Of a DNA stretch of 64,000 bases, positions 10,322 to 26,577 are shown one piece after another. Every line of letters starts with the position of its first letter. Within the stretch, counting starts at the first letter, position 1. The position numbers and the translations under genes are program-made. The stretch is taken from positions 1 to 64,000 of IMG/VR virus record IMGVR_UViG_3300042560_001229; one strand, 5' to 3'. The DNA is from a virus. The notes under the pieces were generated by a model. The model was not told where the DNA came from. It made no database searches and saw only the letters and a list, made by a program, of their open reading frames with translations.

Positions 10322-10554
10322 CCACTGAGGATGTGCAGGAGATGCTGGACGGCAACGAACTCGTCTCGTGGATGGAGCCGGATGACGGCACCGATGAACC
10401 GATCATTTGGTTCGCGCACGCGAAAGACCTTGTGCTTTGCCAGAAGGAAGTAGCGAAGGCGGTAACGAGGAACCCTGCTTGGGAGTATGACTCGGACAAG
10501 GATGCGCTGGAGGATTTCATCGTCATCCACTGGTGCGAAAGGACATGGCCATGA
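10318..10554 (+). CDS. acidic hypothetical protein
   Basis: ATGA overlaps. Confidence 0.6.
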   Translation: MTTEDVQEMLDGNELVSWMEPDDGTDEPIIWFAHAKDLVLCQKEVAKAVTRNPAWEYDSDKDALEDFIVIHWCERTWP

Positions 10555-10818
10555 GCATCCGCGTAGTCCACTGCAAGAGGGAGCCGCATGACATCTACAT
10601 CGGCAGGCCGAGTCCGTGGGGAAAACCCCTTTGAAATCGGCAGGGACGGAACGCGGGAGGAAGTCATTGCCAAGTATCGCACTTGGCTTGGTGAGCAACC
10701 GCACCTGATGAAGCTGCTCCCTACCCTGAGAGGCAAAGTGCTCGGATGCTGGTGCGCCCCGAAAGCCTGTCATGGTGACGTGCTCAAGGAACTGGCCGAG
10801 AGAGGGGAGAAGCCATGA
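10551..10818 (+). pseudogene. DUF4326-family gene with a 1-nt insertion
   Basis: MSIRVVHCKREPHDIYIGRPSPWG in one frame and NPFEIGRDG..LGCWCAPKACHGDVL in the next; extra A in AAAA 10622-10625. Confidence 0.8.
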
Positions 10819-11276
10819 AAGGATGGACAGCACCGCCAGTGGAAAGAGGGATACCGATTCCGGCTCCATCGAAACCAAGGAAGGGACGACCGCCCAACAC
10901 CCATCCACCATCGCCGTGGATTGCATGGCTGAAAACTTTGGCGGTGGGAGATTCGTTCCCCGTCTATTTCAGCACAGGGAATACGGTGAAGAAGTATCTG
11001 GAGAATCTCGGCATTGCTTACGAGTATCGGTGGGTAGGCGATGGGCAGGGTGGTAGGTTCTGGATTCTCAGCCAGCCTTGGCGCTGTGCGGAACGACCGG
11101 ATGGATTGCACCAGTGGGAACCGAAACCCTTGGAAGGGCTGAACCATTTTCGCTGCTCCGCATGTGGAGTCCCCGGAGTGCTGGACATCCCTGCAAAGCG
11201 CATCGTGCCCACCCTACCCTCCGAGGAACCCGCTCCACTTACCGAGAGGCCCGCCTCGACAGATTCAGCCGCGTAA
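10815..11276 (+). CDS. hypothetical protein (VERGIPIP..LAVGDSF DNA-binding-like N-terminus)
   Basis: Motif recognition; C-terminal CSAC. Confidence 0.6.
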   Translation: MKGWTAPPVERGIPIPAPSKPRKGRPPNTHPPSPWIAWLKTLAVGDSFPVYFSTGNTVKKYLENLGIAYEYRWVGDGQGGRFWILSQPWRCAERPDGLHQWEPKPLEGLNHFRCSACGVPGVLDIPAKRIVPTLPSEEPAPLTERPASTDSAA

Positions 11277-11284
11277 AAAAGAAC

Positions 11285-11617
11285 ATGAGCAACAAGACGA
11301 ACAGACGCATAGGGAAGTTTCGCATCAACCGCGAAGTCATGGACAACTGGCGGCAGGCAAACGGACTGCTGACCAACGTGTTCGTGCTCCGCTGTGAGTT
11401 CATGGAGGCTGACCGCTGCTTCCACTATGTCGCGCTGTGCGATGAGTTCGAGGAAGTCCAGTTGGGCGAGGAGCCACCTGAGTATGAAGTCATCGTGACC
11501 ACTCACGGAGATGGCAGTCAGACTGACTTTAGGTTTCGGCTGAACGAATTTGCCACAGTTTCAAAACGACTTCGGGCGCTGGACTTCTCGAAAACAGAAG
11601 CTAGGTCTGCTCCATAA
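11285..11617 (+). CDS. hypothetical protein
   Basis: In-frame ATG after previous stop. Confidence 0.65.
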   Translation: MSNKTNRRIGKFRINREVMDNWRQANGLLTNVFVLRCEFMEADRCFHYVALCDEFEEVQLGEEPPEYEVIVTTHGDGSQTDFRFRLNEFATVSKRLRALDFSKTEARSAP

Positions 11618-11700
11618 GGAAGAAAATCCATCGGTGGAAAACTTTGCAACTGTTGCAAATATCGCTTGTCCATGAAGCCGCTCAGAAAGAAGTTTGCGGC

Positions 11701-12033
11701 ATGAAAACGATGAAACTAATTCTGCTCGCAACCATGATGCTCACCGGCACGTTGTTTGCGGAACCCGACACGAGTGCAGCAGCCGACTGCCGGAAAATGC
11801 TGGCCGACCTGAATCAAGCGTCCCGCTCCCTAGCCAGTCCTGCGGAGAAGGCGACGATCATTCAGCAAATGCACAAGTCGGCCAAGCTCGCCTCCTACAA
11901 GGTTCCGTCTGCCAATCATTCCGCTCGCAAGATGCTGTGGGACGTTACCCTTGAATGCGGAAATGGTATGCGCTGGAATCCGGCAAAGGTGAAGTCCATG
12001 CTGGAAAGTGCCGTGCTGGAGTTGGAGAAGTGA
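11701..12033 (+). CDS. secreted/periplasmic protein
   Basis: Signal peptide MKTMKLILLATMMLTGTLFA; variant promoter TTGTCC 11666 and palindrome 11644. Confidence 0.7.
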   Translation: MKTMKLILLATMMLTGTLFAEPDTSAAADCRKMLADLNQASRSLASPAEKATIIQQMHKSAKLASYKVPSANHSARKMLWDVTLECGNGMRWNPAKVKSMLESAVLELEK

Positions 12034-12081
12034 AATGAGGACTTGCACAACGAATCGGGGCTGTGCATAGTCGGCACCGAT

Positions 12082-12834
12082 ATGACCAAATCACGCACGC
12101 GCAGTAAGGGCGGCAAGCCAGCCCTCAGCACCGAAGCACCGAAACTCCCCAAGACGATTGCGGAGATTACGATTGAGAGAAAGCAACTCACGGAGTTGCG
12201 GCCTCACCCCAAGAATCCGCGCACCCACCCCGAGCGGGGAACGGCGGAGTATGAGACGTTGAAGGCGTCTTTGGAGTATGACTACTTCGACCCGATGGTT
12301 TGGAATAAGCGCAACGGGATGCTCGTCTCCGGTCACTTCCGCCGACGCATCCTGCTCGACATGAGCTACACCGCTGCGGATGTCGTGGTGGTGGACTACG
12401 ACGAGAACACTCATTTGGCGAGGATGCTGGCGGCGAACAAGGGGTTGGGAAAGGTGAACAAGGCGCAGCAGAAAACCCTGTTTCAAGATTTGCTGGATGC
12501 GAGTGCGAAGATGGAGTTGTCGGGGTTCACGGACAAGGAGTGGGGCAAGTTCATTGATGCGGCTGGGGAATCGCTGGAGGGGCCGCAACCTGACTACCCC
12601 ATTGCTCCCATCCTCGGTGAGAAGCACGACTACGTGATCGTCTATACGGCGAACGAGACTGATCGAGCCTTCCTCCATTCCCTGCTAGGCATTCGCCAAG
12701 AGCGCAGCTACAAGAGCACCAGCATTGGTTTAGGGCGGGTGGTTACTTTTGAGCGGTTTGTTGCGGAGTTGGTAAAGAACAAGGAATCCTTGAACGCGCA
12801 GAGTCTTGTCTCCGGTAACTACCAGCCTGAGTAG
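12082..12834 (+). CDS. ParB/Srx N-terminal-domain protein
   Basis: LRPHPKNPRTH..LKASL..DPMVWNKRNGMLVSGHFR. Confidence 0.85.
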   Translation: MTKSRTRSKGGKPALSTEAPKLPKTIAEITIERKQLTELRPHPKNPRTHPERGTAEYETLKASLEYDYFDPMVWNKRNGMLVSGHFRRRILLDMSYTAADVVVVDYDENTHLARMLAANKGLGKVNKAQQKTLFQDLLDASAKMELSGFTDKEWGKFIDAAGESLEGPQPDYPIAPILGEKHDYVIVYTANETDRAFLHSLLGIRQERSYKSTSIGLGRVVTFERFVAELVKNKESLNAQSLVSGNYQPE

Positions 12835-12835
12835 C

Positions 12836-13579
12836 ATGAGAGTTCAAGTTGTTATACCTTCGTTTAGGCGAGCGAAGCTGTGTTTGTCTCATCGTCTGTT
12901 TTCCGATGCGTTAGTGTGCATACCTGATGATGAGGACTACGCGGAATATCTGGCTAGCGGTTTCACGAAAAAGCAGTTGCTTGTCCATTCGTCCAAGATG
13001 ATTGGGATAGCCCCGAAGCGGAACTGGATTCTGCAACAGTTTCAAAATGAGCCTGTGTTCATGGTTGACGACGACATGGAATCTTTTCATCGGGTTTATG
13101 GCAAACTCGGACAGACATCCAAGATAAAGGAAGTTGGGGCCGCGCAGGAGGTAATTAACAACCTAGCTCAGATGACTCATGATATGGGTGCCTTCATGTT
13201 CGGGCTTGGATGCTTTCCAGACCCCAAGCTGTTTGGCGTGGACAAGCCGTTTGCCATTACAGGGTTTATCCCCGGTGCAGCTATGGGTCTGCTTCCCGGT
13301 CACGGACTTAGTTTTGATACGCAGTTCCTACTACGGGACGACTTTGATATTTGCTGCATGAATGCCTTTAGGCACCGCATCTGTCTAAAGGAGAACCGCT
13401 TCACGTTCAGCACGGTTGAGATGTATAAGCGAGCCGGTGGTCAGGCGACTTACCGAACAGGCACCGTTGACGGTTCGTGCATTGAACGTCTTATCCTCAA
13501 GTATGGGAGTGATGTGATTATGCGGTCTGGCGTGATGGAAGGGCCGGTGGAGAAAATAAAGATGGTGCTCCCCTATTGA
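12836..13579 (+). CDS. TET-associated (TAGT/GREB1-like) glycosyltransferase 1
   Basis: VIPSFRR, GIAPKRNWIL, MVDDD, DDFD, GG..YR, LKYG. Confidence 0.8.
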   Translation: MRVQVVIPSFRRAKLCLSHRLFSDALVCIPDDEDYAEYLASGFTKKQLLVHSSKMIGIAPKRNWILQQFQNEPVFMVDDDMESFHRVYGKLGQTSKIKEVGAAQEVINNLAQMTHDMGAFMFGLGCFPDPKLFGVDKPFAITGFIPGAAMGLLPGHGLSFDTQFLLRDDFDICCMNAFRHRICLKENRFTFSTVEMYKRAGGQATYRTGTVDGSCIERLILKYGSDVIMRSGVMEGPVEKIKMVLPY

Positions 13580-13580
13580 T

Positions 13581-14345
13581 ATGCCCGAAGTCCGCGTCAT
13601 CATTCCATCGTTCCGTCGCAGTCAGTTGATTTACTCTCATAGGGTCTTGGAGGATTACATCGTGTGCATCCCTGAGTCCGATTATGCCGACTACGTGGCC
13701 GTGGGGATTCCGAAGAAACGAATTGTCTGTCACCCGAACACAGTGATCGGGTTGTGCCCGAAGCGGAATTGGATTTTCGACAACCTCGAAAACGGCAAAC
13801 CGTTCCTATCGCTGGACGATGACATCCACGGCATGATGCGGACGTTCACGCCAGCCGGTGTGACGACGCTGTTGGACAGCAAGGTGGCCGTCCATGAAAT
13901 CATTGATAACACGGTGAGCATGGCAGAGGAGATTGGGGCGAAGTTCTTTGGCTTTGCGAACAGTGCCGACATTCGCACGATCAATTTCAATGTGCCGTTC
14001 GCCCTTACCGGATTCGTCAACGGATGGAGTATGGGATTCCTGCCGGGGCATGGTCTGCGCCTGCCGGAGAACCTGATTGGCAAGGAGGATTACGAACTGT
14101 CGTTGCAGAACGCTTTTCGACACCGCATCTGCTTCCGCAACAATCGCTATGGGTTCAATGCCGAGGGGACGTTCAAGAACACCGGAGGGTTGGCCGTCTA
14201 TCGAAATAACGAGACGGAGAAGAAGGCCGTGGCCATTCTCCAGCAACGCTATGGGTCGGACGTAGTGCTTGTGGTCAGGCGCACAGGGTTCAAGACACAG
14301 GAGCATGTAGGGTATCAGAAAATTGCCCTCAACCTTCCATTCTGA
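13581..14345 (+). CDS. TET-associated (TAGT/GREB1-like) glycosyltransferase 2
   Basis: IIPSFRR, GLCPKRNWIF, LDDD, KEDYE, NTGG..YR; paralog of the upstream gene. Confidence 0.82.
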   Translation: MPEVRVIIPSFRRSQLIYSHRVLEDYIVCIPESDYADYVAVGIPKKRIVCHPNTVIGLCPKRNWIFDNLENGKPFLSLDDDIHGMMRTFTPAGVTTLLDSKVAVHEIIDNTVSMAEEIGAKFFGFANSADIRTINFNVPFALTGFVNGWSMGFLPGHGLRLPENLIGKEDYELSLQNAFRHRICFRNNRYGFNAEGTFKNTGGLAVYRNNETEKKAVAILQQRYGSDVVLVVRRTGFKTQEHVGYQKIALNLPF

Positions 14346-15355
14346 TGAAGGTGCTGGTTGTAGGCAGTGGAATTAGCGGACTGGTCGCGGCCCGTTTGAT
14401 GCGAGATGCTGGGCATGATGTGGTCGTGCTGGAGACTCGTGAACATATCGGCGGGAACTGCTACGACTACAAGGATGCGCCTACTGGAGTGACGGTTCAC
14501 AAGTATGGCCCGCATTGTCTGCACACCAATTCGGATACGGTGGCTTTGTTCCTCCAACGCTTCGGGAAGTTCAACGATTTCAGTCCAGAAGTGTGGGGAC
14601 GCATAGGGGATGGGCGATTGGTGCCCGTTCCGTTCAACCTGCACGGTGCGGATTTGGTGGGGCCAAAGACACCCGAGGAGATTAGGGACATGATCTTCGT
14701 GGACTACTCTGAGAAGATGTGGGGCAGGCCGTGGGAGCAGATACCGGAGAACATCCGCAAGCGGTTGCCGGTTATGAGGGAAAGCCATGAACTGCGCTTC
14801 CACCAAACCAAGTATGTCGGAGTGCCGGTGGACGGATGGACGAGTCTGCTAAGTGCTATGGCCGAGGGGGTGACTGTCCATCTGAATACTATCTTGGGGG
14901 AATGGATTTCGTGGAGCAGGAATTGGGCAGACCTGACCATTTACACGGGAAAGCTGGATGCGTTTTACGGTTATCGGCACGGCAGGCTCCCTTATCGGAG
15001 TTTGGACATCAAGATTGAGCGCACCACGCGCCAGCGGCATTTCCAGATTAACGAATGCAACAGTTTCAATAAATGGACGCGGGCGTGTGACCAAGGATGG
15101 TGGTATGGGAAGCATGAGGATGCCACCATTGTCACGCGGGAGTATTCAGTTGACCACACACCGGAGAATGAGCCGTATTACCCGATGAGGCCGTTTAGCG
15201 GTGCAACGGAGATGTGGGAGAAGTATGATGCGCTGGCGAAGCATGAGTCGCGGACAGTATTCCTTGGGAGGCTGGCGAACTACACCTACATAGACATGGG
15301 TGTGGCTGTTGGAACGGTGTTGGGAAAAGTTGGGAAAATTACTGGAGTAGCATGA
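14345..15355 (+). CDS. glf: UDP-galactopyranose mutase 1
   Basis: GSGISG FAD motif, IGGNCYD, HKYGPH, LPYRSL, YYP, GRLANYTYIDM. Confidence 0.9.
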   Translation: MKVLVVGSGISGLVAARLMRDAGHDVVVLETREHIGGNCYDYKDAPTGVTVHKYGPHCLHTNSDTVALFLQRFGKFNDFSPEVWGRIGDGRLVPVPFNLHGADLVGPKTPEEIRDMIFVDYSEKMWGRPWEQIPENIRKRLPVMRESHELRFHQTKYVGVPVDGWTSLLSAMAEGVTVHLNTILGEWISWSRNWADLTIYTGKLDAFYGYRHGRLPYRSLDIKIERTTRQRHFQINECNSFNKWTRACDQGWWYGKHEDATIVTREYSVDHTPENEPYYPMRPFSGATEMWEKYDALAKHESRTVFLGRLANYTYIDMGVAVGTVLGKVGKITGVA

Positions 15356-16380
15356 AGGTGCTGGTTGTGGGTGCCGGGATAAGTGGGGCGACAGTGGCGG
15401 CAAGGTTGCGGCAGTCGCGGCACGCCGTAACGGTCGTGGACTCGCGCTCGGTGGTAGGAGGGAACTGCCATGATTATCGGGATGACGTAACCGGAGTAAT
15501 GGTGCATAAGTATGGGCCGCATGTGTTTCACACCAAGCAGGTTGCGGTGTGGAATTTTCTCCAAGACTACACGGAGTTTGATCGTCTGGACTTGAAGATC
15601 GTGGCTGAGTTGCAGGACAGGAGGGTAGTGCCTATTCCTTACAATGACACCACGCGGAGGATTGTCGGTGACTGGACGGAGGAGGACATCCTGCGGGAGA
15701 TTGTGGTGCCGTATTCGGAGAAGATGTGGGGGTGTCCGTTTGCCGAGATTCCGAAATCCATCACCAACCGCGTGCCCAAGCCAAGGGTCGGTAATGACGA
15801 CAGATGGCATCAGGACACGTTGCAGGGTGTGCCGAGGCATGGCTACACGCAAATGGTGGAGAGTATGTTGGAGGGGTGTGATGTGCTGGTGGGCGTTGAC
15901 GGGGACTACTGGAGACGCATCCGCGACGACTTCGATCTGGTGGTCTATACCGGCAAGCTGGATGACTACTTCCAGAGCATCCACGGTGCGCTGCCCTATC
16001 GTTCGCTGAACATTGTCTCGGAGGTGAAGACATGGCGTCTCCCTACCATGCAGATGAATGCCTGCAACACTCGCAACCCGTTCACCCGGCAGATAGATCA
16101 CGGCCACTGGTATCCGTATCGCAGCAGTGTCTCGAAGTGGACGACGATCATTTCGACGGAGACGCCCTGCGCTCATGTGCCGGGTGAAAATGAAGCGTTC
16201 TACCCAATGGCGGCGTTTGCTGGGGTGGAGGAGTTGGCCGGAAAGTATCGGGCAATGGCCGAGGCTGAATCACGCACGCTGTTTGTGGGAAGGCTTGCAA
16301 CTTACACGTATCTGGATATGGATGTTGCGGTCGGCATCGCCCTCAAGACTGCTGAGAGACTGCTGAACCTACCTATATGA
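15352..16380 (+). CDS. glf: UDP-galactopyranose mutase 2
   Basis: GAGISG, GGNCHD, HKYGPHVFHT, LPYRSL, GRLATYTYLDMD. Confidence 0.92.
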   Translation: MKVLVVGAGISGATVAARLRQSRHAVTVVDSRSVVGGNCHDYRDDVTGVMVHKYGPHVFHTKQVAVWNFLQDYTEFDRLDLKIVAELQDRRVVPIPYNDTTRRIVGDWTEEDILREIVVPYSEKMWGCPFAEIPKSITNRVPKPRVGNDDRWHQDTLQGVPRHGYTQMVESMLEGCDVLVGVDGDYWRRIRDDFDLVVYTGKLDDYFQSIHGALPYRSLNIVSEVKTWRLPTMQMNACNTRNPFTRQIDHGHWYPYRSSVSKWTTIISTETPCAHVPGENEAFYPMAAFAGVEELAGKYRAMAEAESRTLFVGRLATYTYLDMDVAVGIALKTAERLLNLPI

Positions 16381-16889
16381 CCACACGCATCCGCACCAAG
16401 AAGCCAGCCGCCCCGAAGATGAAGCTCGTCCCTGTTGACACGATGGGGCGCAGTCGGGAGCGGGACACCGAACGCACCGCCCGCAACAAGGAGATTTTCC
16501 TCAGCAAGCTGAGGGATGCGCTGGGCATTGTGAAAGCCGCCTGCGATGCCACCGGGATTCATCGGACAACCTACTATTGGTGGATGACGCATGACCCGGT
16601 GTTCAAGAAGGCTGCGGATGATCTGATTGAGGAGCGCATTGACGTGGCCGAGGCCGCGCTGGTGAAGTCCATCAAGGAGGGGCAGCCTGCTGCGATTATC
16701 TTCTTCCTCAAGACCAAGGCGAAGCACCGGGGCTACGTGGAGCGCATGGAGCACGTCGGCACGGCAGAGGCTCCCATCGTGGTGCATCATGGTGTGGACA
16801 TGCAGTGGTTGAATGAGGAACTGCCCAAGGAGAAGCTGGCTGGCATCCTTGGAAAACTCCACTCGGCCAATGGTCGCTCTGAGCAGTGA
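16377..16889 (+). CDS. terS: terminase small subunit
   Basis: HTH GIVKAAC..GIHRTTYYWW..DPVF, AIIFFLKTKAKHRGYVER; directly upstream of TerL. Confidence 0.82.
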   Translation: MTTRIRTKKPAAPKMKLVPVDTMGRSRERDTERTARNKEIFLSKLRDALGIVKAACDATGIHRTTYYWWMTHDPVFKKAADDLIEERIDVAEAALVKSIKEGQPAAIIFFLKTKAKHRGYVERMEHVGTAEAPIVVHHGVDMQWLNEELPKEKLAGILGKLHSANGRSEQ

Positions 16890-18321
16890 GACGGAGCAGG
16901 CGGAAGTGTTTCGTGCGCTGGTGCAGAAGGCGCGGACGGACTTCCTGACCTACCTGCTGCTGTTCAACCCACCGGGGTCGGACATCGTGCTGAGTGACTG
17001 CCACCTTGCACTGGCCGAACTGGTGCAGGGTGTGGTGGACAATCATCTGTCCAAGAGGCAGGCCACGTCCATGCCGCCGCAGCATGGCAAGAGCACGATG
17101 CTGTCGAAGGAGGCAGTGTCATGGATTGTGGGACGACTGCCGGGGATACAGGTGGCGTTGACCAGTTTCAGCCACGAACTTGTCACTGACTTCTCGAAGG
17201 CGATTCGTAGCCGGGTGGAGATGCCCCTCTACGAGATGATCTTCCCCAAGGCGACGTTGCATCCGCTTTTCAACAGGTCAGATAGTTGGATGCTGAACAA
17301 CGGAAGCGGGGTAAGGGCTAAGTCGGTAGGGAAGAAGCTGACCGGACGCCGGGTGGACTGGCTGATTATTGATGATGCCCACTCCGGTCGTCGTGAGGCC
17401 GAAAGTCCTCTGGCAAGGAAGCGAGTGCGCGAGTGGTATTTCGGTGATTGCATCAGCCGTCTGGCTCCGAGTGCCACCGTTTTTATCATAGGGACTCGCT
17501 GGCATCCGCAGGATTTGATTGGGCATCTGATCGGGGAGGAATACACCGAGGAGATGGTGTTGCAGGGCAAGACGCAGGAGTTGTTCAGTGCCACGAACAT
17601 GGAGGCCATCTGCACGGACACGGACAAAGACCCGCTGCATCGGGATGTGGGAGCCGCCCTATTCCCCGAAGTGCGTAACCGGGTGTTCTTGGAAAACATC
17701 AGGGCGGCGATTCCAGAGTATGAGTGGCAGAGTCAGTTCCAAGGCAAGCCGCAGACCAGCGGCAGCGGACAGGTGGACATCAATAAGCTGCATCGCATCA
17801 GCATGTCGGATGTGCCCACGAACATCGAATGGTTCCGTGGTTGGGACTTGGCGCTGACGGAGAACAAGACCAGCGACTACTCGGCAGGGCCGCTCTGCGC
17901 CTATGACAAGGCGAAGGACTTTTTCTACATCATTGATATGTTCCGTGAGAAGCTGGCGTGGCCAAGGTTGAAGCCGCAGATTGTCCGTCTGGCGAAGCTC
18001 GACCATGAGGAGCACGGTTCGCATCGCGTAGGCATGGAGGCGGTGATTGGTTTCGACATCGGCTGGCAGGAAGTGCGGCAGGAGTTGATGGGTGTGATGA
18101 AGGTGGAGAAGCGCAATCCGTCCTCGGACAAGCTGATTCGAGCGCAGCCGTGGTTTAACAAGATCGAAGCCGGGAAGGTGTTCCTCGTCCGTGGGGAATG
18201 GAACCGGGACTTCCTCAACGAGTTGTCCCTTTTCCCCGATGGCGACCATGATGACCAGATAGATGGAGTCTCGGTTTGCTGGGAGATGGCGACCAAGGTG
18301 CAGAAGCTCCTGTTCGCGTAA
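16870..18321 (+). CDS. terL: terminase large subunit
   Basis: MPPQHGKS Walker A, LIIDD Walker B, GTRWH, GWDLA, FPDGDHDDQID nuclease. Confidence 0.95.
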   Translation: MVALSSETEQAEVFRALVQKARTDFLTYLLLFNPPGSDIVLSDCHLALAELVQGVVDNHLSKRQATSMPPQHGKSTMLSKEAVSWIVGRLPGIQVALTSFSHELVTDFSKAIRSRVEMPLYEMIFPKATLHPLFNRSDSWMLNNGSGVRAKSVGKKLTGRRVDWLIIDDAHSGRREAESPLARKRVREWYFGDCISRLAPSATVFIIGTRWHPQDLIGHLIGEEYTEEMVLQGKTQELFSATNMEAICTDTDKDPLHRDVGAALFPEVRNRVFLENIRAAIPEYEWQSQFQGKPQTSGSGQVDINKLHRISMSDVPTNIEWFRGWDLALTENKTSDYSAGPLCAYDKAKDFFYIIDMFREKLAWPRLKPQIVRLAKLDHEEHGSHRVGMEAVIGFDIGWQEVRQELMGVMKVEKRNPSSDKLIRAQPWFNKIEAGKVFLVRGEWNRDFLNELSLFPDGDHDDQIDGVSVCWEMATKVQKLLFA

Positions 18322-18476
18322 TCCACACCCAAACCGCCTCTTAGGACAGGCCGCTCCAGAGGCCACAAAAGCCCCATACGTTGAGCAGGCTGGCTTCCCC
18401 ACTACCTACCCTCCAGAAGTTGCAAACGCCGGTTTCCAGTCATCGAAACTATTTTTGCAACAGTTGCAAATTCTTT

Positions 18477-18513
18477 TTGACAACGAATCACTCCTGTAAG
18501 AAACTGCTGCCTT
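18477..18513 (+). promoter_or_regulatory. Conserved promoter with upstream palindrome, near-identical to 307
   Basis: TTCTTTTTGACAACGAATCACTCCTGTAAGAA shared with 301-332; ATG 18514. Confidence 0.88.
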
Positions 18514-18798
18514 ATGAAATCCACCCGCCAACCCGACCCCGCTGAAATCCAACGCAAGCTCGATCTTGCCATTGCCTTCAAAGCCGCCTGCGCCCGTCTG
18601 CGGGCCACCCGCGCTCGCACCCTGTCCGAGCAGCCGCCCCTCTCCACCTACGTCAACGGTGTGTATGACGACCGGAGCGAGGACTTCCACGCCCGCGAGA
18701 ACGAAATCGAAAATGACCGCCGTGCTGCGGAGTTCGATGAAACCGTGGCCGAACGCGCCGCGCAGTTCAGTGAGCACGCCCTCCCTACCGCCTACTGA
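18514..18798 (+). CDS. hypothetical protein (MKST start)
   Basis: Follows promoter. Confidence 0.7.
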   Translation: MKSTRQPDPAEIQRKLDLAIAFKAACARLRATRARTLSEQPPLSTYVNGVYDDRSEDFHARENEIENDRRAAEFDETVAERAAQFSEHALPTAY

Positions 18799-18799
18799 C

Positions 18800-19081
18800 A
18801 TGAGCTACCAGACTATCGAAGCAACCATGTATCTGGAGCGGGATGGGTATGAAGTGCAGGTGTCCCTCAGCGCCACGTTCATTCCCGGCTCACGCCAGAC
18901 CCGCGAGGAGCCTGTCGAGGAAGCCTGCTTGGAGGATGTCACAGCCAAGTTGCCCGATGGACGGGAACTGACTTTGGAGGACGATGAGGAGGACGATGCC
19001 GAGCAAGCTCTGTGGCAAGCAGTCGAGGGTAAGCGCGAGGATGCACAGGTTCGTAACCACGTAAGCCGAAGGGACGAATAG
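18800..19081 (+). CDS. acidic hypothetical protein
   Basis: In-frame ATG after previous stop. Confidence 0.65.
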   Translation: MSYQTIEATMYLERDGYEVQVSLSATFIPGSRQTREEPVEEACLEDVTAKLPDGRELTLEDDEEDDAEQALWQAVEGKREDAQVRNHVSRRDE

Positions 19082-19350
19082 CATGAGCAGAAACGATCAA
19101 GAACTTCTGATATTCGCCATCTACATGCTGGCTGTCGCCATCTGGACGGTCGCCTACTTCATACCGGCACCCTCGCTATGACCATCACCTATCTGAACGG
19201 AGAGAACAGGCAAGTGACCGAGCATCTGCCCTGCCGCACGGCTCTTGCCGCTGTGGAGTTGCTGAAAGCCGCAGGGAAGAATTTCAAGTATCTCGTGCGC
19301 TGTGAACCAGACGCACCCGCAGTGAAACCAAAAACAGAAAACCAACCGAA

Positions 19351-19620
19351 ATGAAACAGTATCAAGACCACGACCCGATCAAGGACAAAGGCAAGGCAGT
19401 GCCGCATCCGAAACGTCCGACCCATTACTCCTACCGGGGCCGGGGCTGCGGAGGCTCCCTCACCTTTCTGCGTTCGCAGATAGACAGTGCCACCCGGAAG
19501 GCGAACTCGCCCAAGGCGGTAGCTGATAGGGGCGGTCGTCTTGGAATCTTCGGCATCCTGATGGCCGTGGCCGCGTCTGTGAAATCCGCCGCACGCCGCC
19601 CTACTCAACGAGGACGCTAA
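19351..19620 (+). CDS. hypothetical protein
   Basis: 89-aa ORF. Confidence 0.5.
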   Translation: MKQYQDHDPIKDKGKAVPHPKRPTHYSYRGRGCGGSLTFLRSQIDSATRKANSPKAVADRGGRLGIFGILMAVAASVKSAARRPTQRGR

Positions 19621-19653
19621 GACCATGACACCTTACGAAGCACAGGAGGCCAA

Positions 19654-19923
19654 ATGACCATCTGGAAATACCCGCTGACCCTCACCGACGTTCAGGATGT
19701 GCGGATGCCCATTGGCTCGGAAATCCTCACGGTGCAGGTGCAGCACGCCAGCCTATGCCTGTGGGCGCTGGTGAATCAGAATGCCGGACGAGATGCCGGT
19801 GAGGTTCGCACAATCGAAATCCACGGCACTGGCATCATAATGTCGGACGAGGAGCGTCGTTACATCGGCACCGCGCAGATGGCCGGTGGCGCTCTCGTCT
19901 GGCACGTTTTCGAGAGGCTATGA
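19654..19923 (+). CDS. DUF7352-like protein
   Basis: MTIWKYPL..MPIGSEILTVQ..WALV..YIGTAQ..LVWHVFE. Confidence 0.75.
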   Translation: MTIWKYPLTLTDVQDVRMPIGSEILTVQVQHASLCLWALVNQNAGRDAGEVRTIEIHGTGIIMSDEERRYIGTAQMAGGALVWHVFERL

Positions 19924-20094
19924 AAACGATCACGAACATGAGGCAGTGCCCCAAAGGTCTGACCCGGCCTCAGCGCAAGGTGGTGAGCAGCATCCTCAGT
20001 CGCGTGCGGTTCAAGAAAGGCCGGGGTGTGGTGGTGCATTACTACCATCGGACTAGGGAAGTGCTCGCCCGCCCTCTATTTTGAAACTGTTGCA

Positions 20095-20436
20095 ATGAGC
20101 ACACCTACCAAAGAGCAAATCAAAGACGGGAGGAAGTGCTGGCGTCCGAAGATGCCGGAGCTATCCAAGGCATGTGCGAGTTGTCCGTTCATGGAAGGGA
20201 ACGATTCCGAGTTCGCCAAGATCATCGCCCGGCTCAGGCGGGTGAGTGTGCAGAACGTCCTCAAGTCCGACATCGAATATGCGCGGAGGAGTGTGAAACT
20301 GGACACTGTGCTGACCGGCAACTTCGCCTGCCATCACACCGCCTATGACTTGGAGAGCATGAAGCCCAAGCCGCAGACGGAGTTGCGCCAGTGCAAGGGA
20401 GCCGCTGACTGGTATCGCGCCGGAGGACAGATATGA
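20095..20436 (+). CDS. DUF6283-like Cys/His protein (paralog 2)
   Basis: CASCPF..FACH..CKGA; ATG overlaps palindrome. Confidence 0.7.
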   Translation: MSTPTKEQIKDGRKCWRPKMPELSKACASCPFMEGNDSEFAKIIARLRRVSVQNVLKSDIEYARRSVKLDTVLTGNFACHHTAYDLESMKPKPQTELRQCKGAADWYRAGGQI

Positions 20437-20620
20437 GCTACTACCCCTCCAACCCATCAGCTACGGAGACAGACCGCAAGATTCAGCACTGTGCTACGCC
20501 GAAGGAGGCAGCAGATGCCCTCGAAGGACATGACTTGATAATGGCGGTGGATGCCCTCAGCCGGAAGTTTGGCATCAAGACCAACTCGAAGAAGATGCAC
20601 GCCCTAGTGACTCGCAAGCC

Positions 20621-21214
20621 ATGAGCAACGCCCTAGAAGATCAGATCGTCGAAGGGCACACGGACTTCCACAACCCGCATGATCTTATCTGGCCGCAGAT
20701 CGAACCGCACCTTGGCTATCGTCTGCTGAACACGGACGAGGTAGGCGAACTGCATCCCCAACTTGAGGAAGTGGAGGCGTGGCTGGTCACGGTAGATAAG
20801 TGGGCTACTGGCTATTGGGGACAGGATAGAGGGCTTACCTATCGCACCAAGATGACCCGCGCAGAGTTACGGAAAGCCAGAGGACTGCCGCCCGAGCCGA
20901 AACCAAGGCGCAGGCACAATCCCGACAACGTGACCGATGACCAAGTTGGGGCAGGCTACCGACTGCTGGATGACGATGAGGTAGGGCCGGAGTTTGACCG
21001 GAACAGGGGCTTGGGTGTGGAGCGGTGGCATCCTCACGATAAGGAGTGGCTGAATGGGTATAGTGGTGGCTCAAAGAGCATTACTTACCGCACAAGCATG
21101 ACGCGCAATGAACTGCGTCAGGCTCGCGGCCTGCAACCCGAAGCCGAGCCTCTCTACCCATCTGCTGCACCTGAGCCTGTCCGAGCAAAGAGATTGCGGA
21201 GACTGGAGTTTTAG
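20621..21214 (+). CDS. protein with tandem GYRLL-type domains, C-terminal RLRRLEF tag
   Basis: Two copies of GYRLL..DEVG..W..YRT.MTR.ELR.ARGL.PE. Confidence 0.8.
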   Translation: MSNALEDQIVEGHTDFHNPHDLIWPQIEPHLGYRLLNTDEVGELHPQLEEVEAWLVTVDKWATGYWGQDRGLTYRTKMTRAELRKARGLPPEPKPRRRHNPDNVTDDQVGAGYRLLDDDEVGPEFDRNRGLGVERWHPHDKEWLNGYSGGSKSITYRTSMTRNELRQARGLQPEAEPLYPSAAPEPVRAKRLRRLEF

Positions 21215-21231
21215 CCCAACCTGCTGACCTT

Positions 21232-21501
21232 ATGAAAATCGAACACTTGCTTGAAGCCATTACCGAAACCGCCCGCGAATACGAAGGTCAGGGAGCCAGC
21301 GGGCAGAGAATATGTGAAGCCCTGCGCGGTGTGGTCGCAAGGGCCGGACGTTACGCCGCCAAAGACCCCGACACGGAGGTTGCCCTGCCCGAGCACGAAC
21401 TGCGGGCGATGATTCGTGACGAGATTGCCAAGATGGTCATGCCCTTGGCGCTGGTGGAGAACCCGCCCGAAATTCTCCAACCCGAGGATGCGGAGAGATG
21501 A
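21232..21501 (+). CDS. hypothetical protein
   Basis: CTTATG start. Confidence 0.6.
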   Translation: MKIEHLLEAITETAREYEGQGASGQRICEALRGVVARAGRYAAKDPDTEVALPEHELRAMIRDEIAKMVMPLALVENPPEILQPEDAER

Positions 21502-21543
21502 ATCGCAGTTGACAGGAGAAAGTTGCCCGCCTAGTTGTGGCGC

Positions 21544-21912
21544 ATGGCCAACGAACTTACGCTCAGACTGCAAGCCTCGATCTTGTCTGGAAATCTCCAG
21601 AGCGAGTTTCCTCAGCAGATCATCCGTCCCAACGTGGCGGCACAGGAGCAGAATGGCGGGGTGTTCTCGCTTACGACTTCCGAGACTGACCTGACGCTGA
21701 CCGGCATCACCACACCGGGCTGGCTGATCTTGAAGAATCTCGACACCACGAATTTCCTGACATGGGGGCCGAAGTCTGGCGGTTCGATGATTCTCTGCGG
21801 AAAGATTCTGGCCGGGGAGTTTGCCATCTTCCGGCTCGGCGCTGCGGTGACAATGCGGATGAAGGCGGATACGGCCACGGTCAAGGTGCAGTGGTGGGTC
21901 GTTGGCACCTAA
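21544..21912 (+). CDS. probable virion protein (paralog of 33343)
   Basis: MANELT..GW..KNLDTTNF..GEF. Confidence 0.7.
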   Translation: MANELTLRLQASILSGNLQSEFPQQIIRPNVAAQEQNGGVFSLTTSETDLTLTGITTPGWLILKNLDTTNFLTWGPKSGGSMILCGKILAGEFAIFRLGAAVTMRMKADTATVKVQWWVVGT

Positions 21913-22062
21913 GCCCAAGGCGGTTCCTCACCCAAACCCCCACCCTCGGGGTCTGACGATTCTCAGGGCATCCTCAGCGATTCTGCTGATGGATTCCCCA
22001 CCTTCCCCAAGGTGGTTTGCCTCTTATGGGCCAACTATTTTGCAACTGTTGCAAAATATCTG

Positions 22063-22099
22063 TTGACGACGAATCGGTTTAGGCCCATATTGGTGGCAT
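22063..22099 (+). promoter_or_regulatory. Conserved promoter with upstream palindrome
   Basis: TTGACG-ACGAATC, 17 bp, CATATT; ATG 22100. Confidence 0.85.
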
Positions 22100-22570
22100 A
22101 TGAAATCCACCTCATCCAAACTCAAGACCGCAGCCGTCACGCAGGCTGCACCCGTCCTCACCAAAGCCGAGCGTTTCGCCCGAGGCTTGGAGCATCTGTC
22201 TTACCAGCTTACCGCTGACGTTGAAGACGCCAAGACGCTGAAAGCCAAGTTCATCGCTGACCTTGAAAAAGGTGACGCGACCTACCGCATTACGTGGAAT
22301 GCCACTGAACTGGTGAAGGCCGAGTTCAAGGCGAGCTTCGCCTTTGGTGTTCTGGAAGATGCCAAGCGCAAAGGTGAGCAGTTGTCGGTGACACTGGCCA
22401 GCCATGTGGCCTCGCTGGGTGAGGCTATCCTCCGCAATCGGTTCATCGAATCCTCTACCAGTCCGATGAGCAACGCGGTGGCGATGGCCAAGCACGAAGC
22501 CGCCTGCCACACGCAGGAGCGGTATGCGGGAGTGGTGCGGCACTTCGTCAACGTGGCCGCTCAGTCCTAA
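22100..22570 (+). CDS. hypothetical protein (MKST start)
   Basis: Follows promoter. Confidence 0.8.
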   Translation: MKSTSSKLKTAAVTQAAPVLTKAERFARGLEHLSYQLTADVEDAKTLKAKFIADLEKGDATYRITWNATELVKAEFKASFAFGVLEDAKRKGEQLSVTLASHVASLGEAILRNRFIESSTSPMSNAVAMAKHEAACHTQERYAGVVRHFVNVAAQS

Positions 22571-22746
22571 CCGAACACGAACATGACTTTGAACATCACG
22601 TATAAGAACGGAAAGGTGCAGACGATTGAGCGCGTCACGGACATCAAGGAGCGCGAGCGCGACGGCGGTGTGGTGATTATCTACTACGGCGACTGCGGCT
22701 TCCAGAAAACGGAGAAGAAGCATATCACCAATATGGAGGTGACGCT

Positions 22747-23043
22747 GTGAGCCGCCTGCTCGAACTGCCCTCGGTCAAGGATTGGCCGGAACCGCGCCGG
22801 AGGAAGGCTGTGAACACGCTTCTCTACAAGCTGGGGTTCAACCAGTGGTATCAGTCCATCCCGACTACGGAGATTGCGGACATCCTCACCCGCTTCGGCT
22901 TTGATGCCTCGGTGATGGAGGGCATCTACACCGGCAGGGATGGGCGGATGCACGAACAGATCAAGGACAGCCGACTGTGGCTGACGATGACATGGCACGC
23001 GATGCCGAGTGGCCGCTACGAAATCGTGGCTTATGTCAATTAA
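22747..23043 (+). CDS. hypothetical protein
   Basis: GTGA overlap; W..MPSGRYEIVAY. Confidence 0.65.
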   Translation: MSRLLELPSVKDWPEPRRRKAVNTLLYKLGFNQWYQSIPTTEIADILTRFGFDASVMEGIYTGRDGRMHEQIKDSRLWLTMTWHAMPSGRYEIVAYVN

Positions 23044-23296
23044 CACCTTCCCCGAAACAGGTGTGCTGCTGGACGCAATGCTTGCCGCTCTCGGCCCGCA
23101 GACTCCGACAGCAACCACCGATCAGATGTGCGACCGCATCATCGTTTCGCTGAGGATGCCTGACCGCATGAGTGGAGATTCCGAGTTCAAGACTCGGGTG
23201 TATCGGTTGCTGTGCCGAATGAAGAAGCGCGGACTGTTCACCAGCACGAGGGAGTGGACTGGAAAAGGTTACGGCCCATTATGGAGGCTCGCGTAA
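23033..23296 (+). CDS. possible winged-helix small protein
   Basis: VYRLLCRMKKRGLF..WRL. Confidence 0.45.
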   Translation: MSINTFPETGVLLDAMLAALGPQTPTATTDQMCDRIIVSLRMPDRMSGDSEFKTRVYRLLCRMKKRGLFTSTREWTGKGYGPLWRLA

Positions 23297-23304
23297 ATTA
23301 ACTT

Positions 23305-23342
23305 TTGACAACGAATCGAATCTGAGCCAAGCTACCTGTATT
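23305..23342 (+). promoter_or_regulatory. Conserved promoter (no palindrome)
   Basis: TTGACA-ACGAATC, 17 bp, CAAGCT; ATG 23343. Confidence 0.85.
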
Positions 23343-23639
23343 ATGAAATCCACCACTAGTCCGAAGTCCAAGGCTGTCCGAGTTGGCAGCATTTTGTTTC
23401 ACCCTCCCCGTATGGAGCGAAGGTTCCTGTTGTTCACCCTTACTGGTGAGCCTGTGTATCAGTATGGCTACACCGGCTACACGTTGGAGAAGAACGGGAC
23501 ACGTCAGCAGTCCACCAGCTATGGGGACGTTGGTGATGACCTGCGGCAGAGGCGCGCAGCCAAGGCCACGGCCAAGCTCGGAGTCCCCGTCGAATGGCGG
23601 GAGACGAAGCCAGTCGAAATGATGGGGGTGTCGTTCTAA
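23343..23639 (+). CDS. hypothetical protein (MKST start)
   Basis: Follows promoter. Confidence 0.7.
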   Translation: MKSTTSPKSKAVRVGSILFHPPRMERRFLLFTLTGEPVYQYGYTGYTLEKNGTRQQSTSYGDVGDDLRQRRAAKATAKLGVPVEWRETKPVEMMGVSF

Positions 23640-24649
23640 TGATTGCCCGCCCCATGCTGGCCGAGACGCTGGAGAATGTCGCAGACATCCAGTTCCCGGT
23701 GCTCGCCACCGATAAGATTGATGGTCGCCGCAACCTCCTACTCCCACCCACCGAAGCCGGGAAGATGAGCCGCTGTGCCAGCCGTTCGCTGAAAGGGTTG
23801 AAGAATGACTTCACGCGGGAGTGGCTGGAGAGCTACCTCCCACCCGGCTTGGATGGGGAGTTGGTGGTGCTGACGCCCGATGGCCGCGTGGACGAGTTTC
23901 ACGTTATCTCGTCGGCGTTCACTAATGACGGTGAGCCTGACTTCCGCTTCATGGTGTTCGATGACTTCCGTGGCGGGTTGCAGGAGCCATATCTGGAGAG
24001 AATGAAACGGCTGGAGAAATCCCGGCTCCCATCTGGCAGGGTTATCAAGCTGCTTCCCACCCTCATTGAGAACGAGGAGGAACTGGACGCCTTTGAAGCC
24101 GCTGCCCTTGCCCGAGGGAATGAAGGGATTATGATTCGCACGCCCCACTCACCTTACAAGGAGGGACGCAGCACGGTGCGCGAAGGTTGGCTGCTCAAGA
24201 TCAAACGGTTCAAGGATGCGGAGGGCACTATCGTCGGAACCGTGGAGGGGATGCACAATGCGAATGAGGCCACGATCAACGAAGTAGGGCGCACGCAGCG
24301 TTCCACTTCCAAGGAGGGCAAGATTGGCAAGGGCCGAGTTGGTGCGCTGGTGGTCAAGCCGCTGGAGTTTGGCCCTCCTACCAATGACGACTGGCTGTAT
24401 GTGCAGCAGAACGCTCATCGGATGAAGGCGGCAGTGCAGAGCCACCCGTATCTGTTTATGATGGGCACCGGAGCCATCACCGTAGGCGGGAACAACGTCC
24501 CGTTGTCCGAAGCGCACACGATGCACAGACGGGTGGTGAAGTATAAGTTCCAGCCCATCGGCGTGAAGGTGAAGCCGCGTTTCCCGCAATGCCTCGGCTA
24601 CCGGGACGCTGATGATATGGATGGCGAACAGCAAGGGAGGCTGTTATGA
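23639..24649 (+). CDS. lig: ATP-dependent DNA ligase (minimal type)
   Basis: KIDG motif I, LDGEL, FD, EGIMIR, LLKIK, PRFP. Confidence 0.92.
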   Translation: MIARPMLAETLENVADIQFPVLATDKIDGRRNLLLPPTEAGKMSRCASRSLKGLKNDFTREWLESYLPPGLDGELVVLTPDGRVDEFHVISSAFTNDGEPDFRFMVFDDFRGGLQEPYLERMKRLEKSRLPSGRVIKLLPTLIENEEELDAFEAAALARGNEGIMIRTPHSPYKEGRSTVREGWLLKIKRFKDAEGTIVGTVEGMHNANEATINEVGRTQRSTSKEGKIGKGRVGALVVKPLEFGPPTNDDWLYVQQNAHRMKAAVQSHPYLFMMGTGAITVGGNNVPLSEAHTMHRRVVKYKFQPIGVKVKPRFPQCLGYRDADDMDGEQQGRLL

Positions 24650-24652
24650 CTT

Positions 24653-24748
24653 TGGTGGTCAGTAGTAGCAACATGGTGCCCACGCGAGATGCTGGGACAG
24701 GGCGGTGGAATCTTCGCCTCATAGAAACAAGCGCGCTACTGGCCACCA
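24653..24748 (+). ncRNA. structured RNA closed by a 13-bp stem ending CCACCA
   Basis: TGGTGGTCAGTAG 24653-65 pairs with CTACTGGCCACCA 24736-48; internal hairpins. Confidence 0.5.
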
Positions 24749-24754
24749 TCACTT

Positions 24755-24918
24755 TCAGTAGCAATGCTGAGGCTGACGGGCTGGCAGTATCCAGCCGAGG
24801 GCTGACGGCGAAAGCCTATGTAGCCTGCCATAATCCTATACGGCCCTCGCAAAGGTGCAGTGTAGGCAGTGCCCTCCGTGTGCGCTGTAAAAGGGTGCAA
24901 ACCCAACGCGGCCCTTTC
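24755..24918 (+). ncRNA. multi-hairpin structured RNA with GNRA tetraloops
   Basis: TCAGTA-GCAA-TGCTGA, GGCTGG/CCAGCC, GGC-GAAA-GCC, CCTATAC/GTGTAGG, GAGGGC/GCCCTC, GGGT-GCAA-ACCC. Confidence 0.5.
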
Positions 24919-26573: not shown

Positions 26574-26577
26574 GCCG

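Follow-up and report, generated by a model that had tools for sequence, protein, structure and literature searches.

A ParB-linked pair of glycosyltransferases and two pyranose/furanose mutases ahead of the terminase genes of a lake-water phage: a candidate module for furanose decoration of phage DNA

Among the described systems that come closest to the locus reported here are the GT-A glycosyltransferase clusters associated with 5mYOX/TET enzymes (Burke et al. 2021, PMC8256090; Pyle et al. 2024, bioRxiv 2023.12.21.572611). They share with it the glycosyltransferase (GT) family and active-site motif, the use of two sequential GTs ('subclass I') or of a GT with a sugar-nucleotide-modifying enzyme ('subclass II'), and ParB, clamp-loader-like and terminase neighbours. 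They differ in having a C5-methyltransferase and a 5mYOX, which were not found here, and an epimerase where this locus has two pyranose/furanose mutases; mutases and furanoses receive no mention in Pyle et al. The proposed furanose on DNA links the locus to the glycosylated 5-hydroxycytosine pathways of phages RB69, DLP3 and RL38J1: arabinofuranosyl (Araf)-5-hydroxycytosine DNA has been published, and for Rhizobium phage RL38J1 a route to DNA glycosylation through Glf and UDP-galactofuranose (UDP-Galf), fed by a UDP-galactopyranose mutase (UGM), has been proposed (Lee et al., NAR 2026, PMC13326640). These phages are large myoviruses, however, in which the acceptor (5hodCMP) is made before replication by a thymidylate-synthase homologue (D169N) that was not found here, and their GTs were matched to other GT types in Table 1 of that study. 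The original prediction for this locus knew of no described Galf-DNA modification, which needs qualifying now that Araf on DNA is published and the RL38J1 route has been put forward.

Two further systems pair a ParB-like protein with a DNA-modifying enzyme. ParB-like proteins with an NTP-binding N-domain (NBD), a C-terminal domain and no helix-turn-helix (HTH) activate phage DNA thymine dioxygenases (5mYOX176/ParB176; O'Toole et al. 2026, PMC13229309), and GTs and terminases are often neighbours there as well. The present protein has the same build, but it pairs with a GT, no dioxygenase was found, and the ParB-GT partnership is a predicted one. Upstream of prophage terminases, a ParB N-domain of the same type, with NPR...GH.R...ADN motifs, is fused to DNA methyltransferases (PHROG 498; PMC12704722); genomic position and service to a DNA-modifying enzyme are alike, while the partner here is a separate, rarely fused, GT instead of an N6/N4 methylase. 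Finally, the T2/T6 beta-glucosyl-HMC-alpha-glucosyltransferase (PHROG 842; a TAGT member according to PMC13390438) resembles the GTs of this locus by PHROG family and predicted fold, and puts a second sugar onto a DNA-bound sugar, a role proposed below for one of the two GTs. It differs in acting on glucosyl-hmC from the gp42 pathway, with UDP-glucose as donor and without a ParB partner.

The locus comes from a complete 81.2-kb phage genome with terminal repeats, assembled from lake water, of which a window of 64,000 nucleotides (IMG/VR record IMGVR_UViG_3300042560_001229, positions 1 to 64,000) was the starting point. Between 12082 and 16380, a ParB-like gene, two TAGT-family GTs and two GLF paralogues run straight into the terminase genes, and all seven genes lie on the + strand (Table 1). 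The junctions read from the sequence are tight, with 1-nt gaps at ParB/GT1 and GT1/GT2, a 1-nt overlap (TGATG) at GT2/UGM1, and 4-nt overlaps (ATGA) at both UGM1/UGM2 and UGM2/TerS. The predicted gene order was thus confirmed, and every gene identity was upheld by Pfam and PHROG matches. The ParB-like frame reaches back to a TTG at 12043, and the true start of TerL may be the ATG at 16870.

Table 1. Features of the packaging-operon locus and two further genes in the same phage genome.
Feature	Position	Strand	Matches and remarks
17-bp palindrome TTTGCAAC-T-GTTGCAAA	11643-11659	+	Copy of a genome-wide repeat; upstream edge of operon
Small ORF, ~110 aa from ATG 11701	11701-12033	+	First gene of operon
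ParB-like	12082-12834	+	PHROG 620/498, E about 8e-23; ATG at 12082
GT1, TAGT-family GT-A	12836-13579	+	PF20691, 42.2 bits; PHROG 842
GT2, TAGT-family GT-A	13581-14345	+	PF20691, 37.9 bits
UGM1, short-form flavin NDP-sugar pyranose/furanose mutase, 336 aa	14345-15355	+	PF03275 GLF, E 1e-41; NAD_binding_8
UGM2, mutase paralogue, 342 aa	15352-16380	+	PF03275 GLF, E 8e-43
TerS	16377-16889	+	PHROG 4044, E 2e-10; translationally coupled to UGM2
TerL	16813-18321	+	PHROG 38, E 6e-75; Terminase_6N/6C
Sulfotransferase-family-2-like	26796-27371		
Stand-alone MgsA/RarA C-terminal-domain protein	54541-55263	+	PF12002, E 9e-12

Contigs from three further lake-water samples carried the same stretch with 0 differing letters. 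Breaks in metagenome contigs fall at 11643-11676 and 18446-18525, as would be expected of a repeated element, and promoter-like and terminator-like sites between 10500 and 19500 were not in excess over shuffled sequence. The translation of the small first ORF starts with a hydrophobic, signal-peptide-like segment and had no match in Pfam or PHROG. Elsewhere in the genome, a sulfotransferase-like gene lies beside the portal gene and hints at a glycan chemistry not to be expected on DNA, a point against a DNA target.

Both GTs scored above the curated cut-off of the TAGT family PF20691 (27.5 bits), and the PHROG matched by GT1 is that of the beta-glucosyl-HMC-alpha-glucosyltransferase. The two copies are 38% identical, GT2 being nearer to the family consensus and having at least 1000 homologue representatives. 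Both contain the R...DDD...(E/D)D(Y/F) motif of validated phage DNA GT-A enzymes (Pyle et al., bioRxiv 2023.12.21.572611), seen in GT1 as SFRRA, VDDDM and RDDFD, while R13 and D79-D81 of GT2 were invariant or nearly so across 60 homologues. An AF2 model of GT2 (pLDDT 93.5) adopted a GT-A fold in which residues 79-81 form the DDD motif, and its best matches in BFVD were TAGT-domain phage proteins at TM 0.75-0.81, among them a T-even beta-glucosyl-HMC-alpha-glucosyltransferase, that of Klebsiella phage PKO111. In contrast, generic GT2-type enzymes, TarP and WrtF reached a TM of about 0.5 only, and PF00535 was absent from the whole genome. Sequence, motif and predicted fold therefore support both proteins as DNA-type TAGT enzymes, not cell-wall GT2-family enzymes, an alternative that the original prediction had wished to see checked.

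These comparisons also bear on a different reading of the locus, in which the GTs act on a target other than DNA, be it a host envelope glycan or a protein of the virion or of packaging (capsid, portal, terminase or the ParB-like protein itself); the UGMs would then give Galf-type donors, and ParB would be a mere neighbour or regulator. Galf is a classic sugar of surface glycans, a carbohydrate-sulfotransferase-like gene adjoins the portal gene, and a base-preparing enzyme was detected neither in the lake-water phage nor in the other complete pair-bearing genomes. Against the PDB, the GT2 model gave weak GT-A matches only, and its nearest solved folds, WrtF and TarP, are glycan and teichoic-acid enzymes. 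The TAGT relative GREB1 is, according to PMC7968844, a protein O-GlcNAc transferase. The closest relatives by structure and sequence are nevertheless of the DNA type, the genes head the packaging operon, which is the usual place of phage DNA methylases, and the ParB-like partner is obligatory and belongs to the kind that is fused to DNA methylases (PHROG 498; PMC12704722) and activates DNA dioxygenases. In addition, the ParB-GT pair is kept across phages of Gram-positive and Gram-negative-type hosts without an obvious common envelope or capsid acceptor, and a flippase, GtrA/GtrB, GT2-family genes and an integrase are all missing. I consider a non-DNA target possible but rather doubtful. A role in lysogenic conversion was considered as well and is disfavoured, as neither an integrase nor GT2-, GtrA- or GtrB-type genes were found.

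In the ParB-like protein, an N-terminal ParB/Srx NTP-binding domain is followed by a C-terminal domain that is particular to the family and has a conserved block. A profile built from 19 homologues matched PDB structures of Spo0J, ParB and Noc at their N-terminal CTPase domains (E 1e-7), with matches covering profile positions 24-130 only, and Foldseek retrieved pNOB8 ParB-N, Noc and Spo0J with a low-confidence model (pLDDT 64). An HTH was not detected (no PF17762 match, and profile matches that reach N-domains only), which gives the protein the domain composition of ParB-dependent systems. Its position in the packaging operon argues against a role in partition, and in one natural fusion, P0274, a ParB N-domain is joined to a GT.

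Comparison with related loci showed that the ParB-like/GT pair is conserved as a module just 5' of the terminase. Wherever a related locus includes the DNA upstream of the GT (25 loci), the gene directly 5' of the GT encodes a ParB-like homologue; these loci comprise four terminase types and include phages of Clostridium, Streptococcus and Microbacterium. ParB-like and GT were the only families common to six phage genomes spanning 38-69% GC. The predicted link of ParB to the terminase is therefore conserved within this GT subfamily. TerS of the lake-water phage is 40% identical to the TerS proteins encoded 3' of ParB-GT pairs in loci L023-L027 and L031, and in L023 and L024 a C5 cytosine methylase lies 2 kb 5' of the pair. 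Homologues of the stand-alone RarA-tail protein, whose Atlas structure matches RarA tails, occur in 23 of 26 GT loci; in L023-L027 and L031 they lie between the GT and TerS. The gene adjoins the ParB-GT pair in relatives and is 40 kb away in the lake-water phage; its product possibly belongs to the module as a third component.

What follows the GT is variable: an NAD-epimerase in L023, L024 and L027, a UDP-glucose dehydrogenase in Phorgeous, a second TAGT enzyme in the TerL-related contig L031, and the two UGMs in the lake-water phage. Comparable arrangements, 'GT + epimerase' and 'two sequential GTs', are known from published DNA pathways. A supply of donors by the phage itself fits this pattern, with UGMs filling the place of the relatives' epimerase or dehydrogenase. 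The paired GTs recur in L031 and correspond to the 'sequential GT' class among the validated clusters for phage DNA glycosylation (Pyle et al., bioRxiv 2023.12.21.572611).

The mutases are 45% identical to each other and belong to a large environmental family of short UGMs, with 331 viral loci. UGM1 matched UGMs in the PDB at E 9e-55, and both proteins show the N-terminal FAD-binding Rossmann motif VVG(S/A)GISG together with the GLF domain. When UGM2 was aligned to the Klebsiella enzyme 1wam, Y155, W160, R174, R250, R280, E301, Y314, R343, Y349 and D351 (Klebsiella, Kp, numbering) were retained. Both paralogues agree at R174, R280, Y155, W160, Y314 and Y349, the substrate-binding and catalytic residues of bacterial UGMs; in place of Y185, UGM2 has W and UGM1 has F. 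UGM2 also lacks about 35 residues (Kp 99-133) and falls short of canonical length and helical domain. The catalytic residues are thus intact, and UDP-Gal, UDP-GalNAc, UDP-Ara and dTDP-Fuc are candidate substrates.

The UGMs might instead have nothing to do with the GTs and serve as auxiliary metabolic genes that, for instance, remodel host Galf pools or surface glycans in the course of infection, having been inserted at a permissive spot of the late operon. A general co-occurrence of glf with TAGT, which the original prediction had wished to see tested, was not borne out, in line with such a role: among the best 80 of 331 short-UGM viral loci, none had a ParB-type GT within 8 kb, TAGT was above cut-off in 0 of 46 UGM-bearing viral records, and UGMs were absent from the other 26 GT loci. 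L031, likewise, has the module without UGMs. An insertion of this kind nevertheless seems improbable to me, as the UGMs sit exactly in the donor-enzyme slot, and overlap GT2 and TerS by 1-4 nt, and as a 72.9-kb relative appears, judging from contigs of equal length, to have a UGM together with a 77%-identical GT2 orthologue.

The original prediction had seen no TET/JBP or hydroxymethylase in the window, and this extends to the entire 81-kb genome. No thymidylate synthase (PF00303; control matched in 10 of 14 genomes), C5-methyltransferase (PF00145), 2OG-FeII_Oxy_3 (PF13640), AlkB-like 2OG-FeII_Oxy_2 (PF13532) or radical SAM protein (PF04055) was found in the complete genome, the oxygenase and radical-SAM searches having been validated. 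Tet_JBP (PF12851) was not found either, a weak negative because this search matched nothing in any control. Scanning about 60 ORFs with Pfam and PHROG added no acceptor-forming candidate, and the 20 other records with a GT, including four complete genomes, likewise gave none, with the same weakness for Tet_JBP. GT contigs without 5mYOX or ThyS are regarded as less obviously DNA-directed (Pyle et al., bioRxiv 2023.12.21.572611). As the whole genome gave no acceptor-forming enzyme, DNA can be taken only as the probable target: of the predicted furanose-DNA system, the gene identities, the TAGT type and the ParB/terminase link stand, and the interpretation as a whole is supported in part.

A sub-case of the DNA reading is conventional chemistry, in which a divergent 5mYOX/TET-like or other hydroxylase from an unannotated ORF prepares a hydroxymethyl- or hydroxy-pyrimidine, or the host provides it, and ParB activates both the hydroxylase and the GT. 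More than half of the phage's ORFs have no family, the Tet_JBP search was blind to its controls, and the survey of O'Toole et al. found thousands of 5mYOX-like contigs without PF12851 annotation, with GTs, ParBs and terminases as the commonest 5mYOX neighbours. No cognate 5mYOX was found next to ParB, however; the ORFs upstream are of ~110 aa (secreted-type) and ~110 aa, and none of 5mYOX size adjoins it. The six pair-bearing genomes have no third gene family in common, and the validated 2OG-oxygenase and radical-SAM searches were negative. I judge this sub-case unlikely.

The explanation I favour, with roughly even confidence, is a late glycosylation module that most likely acts on DNA of the phage itself. 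Expressed late, the UGM paralogues would turn host UDP-pyranose sugars (UDP-galactose and a second NDP-sugar) into furanose donors, and the two TAGT-type GTs would act in turn, one placing a first sugar onto the acceptor and the other a second sugar onto the first. The ParB-like protein would load the transferase onto DNA or activate it, in the manner described for ParB and phage thymine dioxygenases, and the RarA-tail protein may assist. Co-transcription with TerS and TerL would place modification after replication, around packaging. In this scheme I infer DNA as the acceptor, the transferred furanose, the order of the GTs and the role of ParB. The cassette thus probably decorates phage DNA with furanose sugars. 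Precedents have been published both for furanoses in the DNA of phages and for a phage-encoded Glf that supplies DNA glycosylation (PMC13326640).

The phage genome is complete at 81,219 bp (CheckV completeness 100% in its IMG/VR record) and carries direct terminal repeats of 127 bp. The window is its first 64 kb, and essentially all of its genes lie on the + strand. Near-identical DNA was present in several lake-water metagenomes from 2024, and a nucleotide search with the cassette returned no match to cultured phages. Pfam and PHROG scans confirmed every gene identity that the original prediction had assigned, from the ParB-like gene through the two glycosyltransferases and two UDP-galactopyranose mutases to the terminase subunits, and the genes of the operon are joined by gaps of 1 nt or overlaps of 1-4 nt (TGATG, ATGA, ATGA).

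Genes of the ParB-to-TerL operon, with the scans supporting each assignment
Feature	Position	Strand	Basis
ParB-like	12082-12834	+	Pfam/PHROG
GT1, TAGT (PF20691) glycosyltransferase	12836-13579	+	Pfam/PHROG
GT2, TAGT (PF20691) glycosyltransferase	13581-14345	+	Pfam/PHROG
UGM1, GLF (PF03275) mutase	14345-15355	+	Pfam/PHROG
UGM2, GLF (PF03275) mutase	15352-16380	+	Pfam/PHROG
TerS	16377-16889	+	Pfam/PHROG
TerL	16813-18321	+	Pfam/PHROG

Promoter-like and terminator-like sites across 10500-19500 were no commoner than in shuffles. A 17-bp palindrome recurs through the genome, and its copies at 11643-11659 and about 18455 (18446-18525) bracket the operon exactly; metagenome assemblies from four samples break at both copies, and between the first copy and the ParB-like gene a small ORF encodes a signal-peptide-like protein. 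An apparent 6.8-kb joint (11676 to 18471) was rejected as an artefact, its support being 30 letters of the repeated palindrome/promoter element on a different contig. Also discarded was a split or frameshifted 5mYOX, an enzyme that prepares the base for the sugar, in two ORFs upstream of the ParB-like gene (179 and 129 aa): their frames differ, the palindrome/promoter lies between them, and the true products are both ~110 aa long, with a signal-peptide-like start in one of them. Downstream of the operon, TerL is followed by ~9 kb of mainly small, unannotated genes before the portal gene (18322-27430), an unusual gap for a packaging/head operon, within which lies an ATP-dependent DNA ligase (23594-24649).

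GT1 and GT2 share 38% identity, and homologues of GT2 number at least 1000 representatives at 50% clustering, every one a stand-alone protein of ~250 aa. The AF2 model of GT2 (pLDDT 93.5) adopts a GT-A fold, and its DDD motif is invariant. Against solved structures it gave weak, generic GT-A matches with a TM of about 0.5 (WrtF, AvpGT, TarP); in a viral predicted-structure library its best matches were TAGT-domain phage proteins (TM 0.75-0.81), among them the beta-glucosyl-HMC-alpha-glucosyltransferase of a T-even-like Klebsiella phage, and proteins of the cell-wall/glycan GT2 family (PF00535) scored lower, at about 0.5. Both enzymes carry the R...DDD...(E/D)D(Y/F) motif defined for experimentally validated phage GT-A enzymes that glycosylate 5hmC in DNA (Pyle et al., bioRxiv 2023.12.21.572611). 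By sequence motif and structure comparison, then, the pair did not cluster with protein or glycan glycosyltransferases, and the TAGT assignment of the original prediction stood. Glycosylation in the service of lysogenic conversion was considered unlikely, given that the genome has no integrase and no GT2-family gene.

The two mutases are 45% identical to each other and clear UGM homologues (E about 1e-54 to the Klebsiella and E. coli enzymes), in which the FAD motif is kept together with the arginines, tyrosines and tryptophan of the active site, ~35 residues of the canonical helical domain are missing, and the canonical Y185 is replaced by W in UGM2 and by F in UGM1. This short form belongs to a large environmental family (2334 matches at E<=1e-20), found in IMG/VR at 331 viral loci with a length of about 325-340 aa; a search of viral contigs with UGM2 alone returned no related loci. 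UGM1 and UGM2 are about as distant from each other as either is from other family members, so far as their sequences can tell either an old duplication or two separate acquisitions, and their divergence would fit two different substrates. The original prediction had proposed a check for co-occurrence of glf and TAGT genes across phages, and no general one emerged: 0 of 46 UGM-bearing viral records had a TAGT match above threshold, and neither a ParB-type GT nor a ParB-like gene lay within 8 kb of the UGM in any of the best 80 of the 331 viral loci. Those 80 loci have a median GC of 36%, many of them on CheckV-incomplete contigs of more than 75 kb. A 72.9-kb ENA relative appears to carry both an orthologue of GT2 with 77% identity (P0003) and a UGM (P0157); a metagenome scan with protein P0158 found two short contigs only, in unrelated contexts.

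Glycosylation of DNA calls to mind the published systems in which TAGT/GT-A enzymes adjoining C5-MT/5mYOX genes glycosylate 5hmC, and in which the known cluster architectures comprise two sequential GTs or a GT with an epimerase; about 65% of GT contigs have neither 5mYOX nor ThyS and are unexplained (bioRxiv 2023.12.21.572611). The original prediction had seen no TET/JBP or hydroxymethylase in the window, and this now extends to the complete genome, in which no match was found to Tet_JBP (PF12851), thymidylate synthase, C5 DNA methylase, two generic 2OG-oxygenase families or radical SAM. Control genomes gave matches for all of these families except Tet_JBP, which matched neither any control genome, nor the 20 other GT-bearing records, nor phiRSL1, so that the Tet_JBP negatives are weak. 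Pfam and PHROG scans of ~60 further ORFs revealed no hydroxylase and recovered replication and repair genes, including RNase H, DNA ligase, DnaB, primase, helicase, RecA, a PD-(D/E)XK nuclease and PolA. The last of these, a family-A DNA polymerase beyond the window (genome 66149-69055; L003:4149-7055), begins with a domain that belongs to the uracil-DNA-glycosylase superfamily (PF03167, E 1e-6) and precedes its 3'-5' exonuclease and polymerase domains. The 20 other GT-bearing records likewise contained no acceptor-forming enzyme. With no acceptor-forming family matched in the genome, the acceptor is explained by no known route. Arabinofuranose on 5-hydroxycytosine has been established in RB69 and DLP3, and in RL38J1 a phage UGM was proposed as the source of UDP-Galf (PMC13326640), so a furanose on DNA is itself no longer new; in RL38J1, however, the acceptor is made by a TS homologue (PMC13326640), whereas the present genome has no thymidylate synthase match.

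The missing hydroxylase also counts towards a serious rival, unlikely as I rate it, in which the acceptor is not DNA at all. A sulfotransferase-like gene beside the portal gene points the same way. This gene, at 26796-27371 (ORF open from 26688), immediately precedes the portal gene, and its product resembles carbohydrate sulfotransferase family 2, with a weak Pfam match (E 0.005), an Atlas feature score of 0.96 and a structural TM of 0.77 to clusters of sulfotransferases that include several viral ones; going by sequence and model, such a protein could further decorate a glycan.

The pairing of a ParB-like gene with a GT was compared across 26 other loci bearing a GT of the same TAGT-type subfamily. 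Of these, the GT led to 22 IMG/VR contigs and to three cultured phages (Clostridium phage CS266P4, Streptococcus phage Javan291 and Microbacterium phage Phorgeous), and TerL to one more IMG/VR contig, L031. The ParB-like gene directly preceded the GT in all 25 loci with upstream DNA, mostly one to a few genes upstream of TerS/TerL with terminases of the Terminase_3, Terminase_6 and GpA types; in the actinophage Phorgeous the pair lies at the right end of the genome, apart from TerL. An all-against-all comparison of six genomes of 38-69% GC (five complete, one 86% complete by CheckV) left the ParB-like protein and the GT as the only families common to all. Of the 26 loci, 23 also encode a stand-alone MgsA/RarA C-terminal-domain protein (RarA-tail protein), in most cases in the interval from the GT to TerS; the homologue in the present phage is 40 kb from the pair (54541-55263). 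The C-terminus of this homologue is a basic run followed by ...AELDFGK, and the ORF upstream of the ParB-like gene (11078-11617) has a similar RLRALDF near its end.

The slot next to the GT is variable. L023, L024 and L027 have an NAD-dependent epimerase there and Phorgeous has a UDP-glucose dehydrogenase; in L031, whose TerL is 57% identical to that of the present phage, the slot is filled by a second TAGT, and in the present phage by GT2, UGM1 and UGM2. In L020 an amidoligase comes directly after the GT (Amidoligase_2, PF12224; L020:4454-5371), which suggests amino-acid decoration of the sugar or base in that phage. L023 and L024 represent one element, a complete 34.8-kb DTR phage, which encodes a C5 cytosine DNA methylase (L023:1176-2096; PF00145, E 3e-48) 2 kb upstream of its ParB-like/GT/RarA-tail/epimerase/TerS/TerL string, with no TET detectable in between.

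Among phage thymine dioxygenases, one subclass is activated by ParB-like proteins that have an NBD and a CTD but lack a DNA-binding domain, and the genes most often found next to 5mYOX are those for GTs, ParBs and terminases (PMC13229309). The ParB-like protein of this phage has an N-terminal ParB/Srx NTP-binding domain and no detectable HTH; its family is most conserved in a C-terminal block, and its AF2 model is poor (pLDDT 64). The predicted complex with GT2 reached a median score of 0.21, below the mark, and is given no weight for or against a contact between the two. P0274, a 492-aa protein from a 3.6-kb Logan contig, joins a ParB-like N-domain (1-170), without the usual C-terminal block, through a low-complexity linker to a GT of this subfamily (233-492) that is 36% identical to GT2; it reads as a natural ParB-GT fusion but, as a single sequence from a single contig, could be an assembly or frameshift artefact.

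Taken as a whole, I give an even chance to a pathway in which the two mutases would supply furanose donors and the two TAGT enzymes would act in sequence on the phage DNA, assisted by the ParB-like protein and coupled to packaging. The searched literature contains no description of a UGM pair with TAGT-type GTs and a ParB but without an acceptor-forming enzyme. A bolder variant, which I regard as improbable, is that the ParB-like/TAGT pair suffices by itself for DNA glycosylation without a phage-made hydroxylated pyrimidine, its acceptor perhaps being an atom of a canonical base, a DNA end or some other site that is universally available, and here installs one or two UGM-made furanoses; if true, it would constitute a new chemical class of DNA modification.

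Phage DNA carrying sugars resists restriction enzymes and CRISPR and is a source of enzymes for DNA labelling. The locus unites three recent topics, TAGT/GT-A DNA glycosyltransferases (2021-2024), the activation of DNA-modifying enzymes by ParB (2026) and furanose sugars on DNA (2026), and it is so compact that all six genes could be co-expressed. The duplicated mutases suggest that phages diversify their donor sugars by swapping enzymes in one cassette slot. The more important point is the ParB-GT pair, the sole thing common to phages that differ greatly and that all lack a recognisable base-hydroxylating enzyme: its acceptor, once identified, would lead either to a hidden hydroxylase family or to a new form of DNA (or non-DNA) glycosylation.
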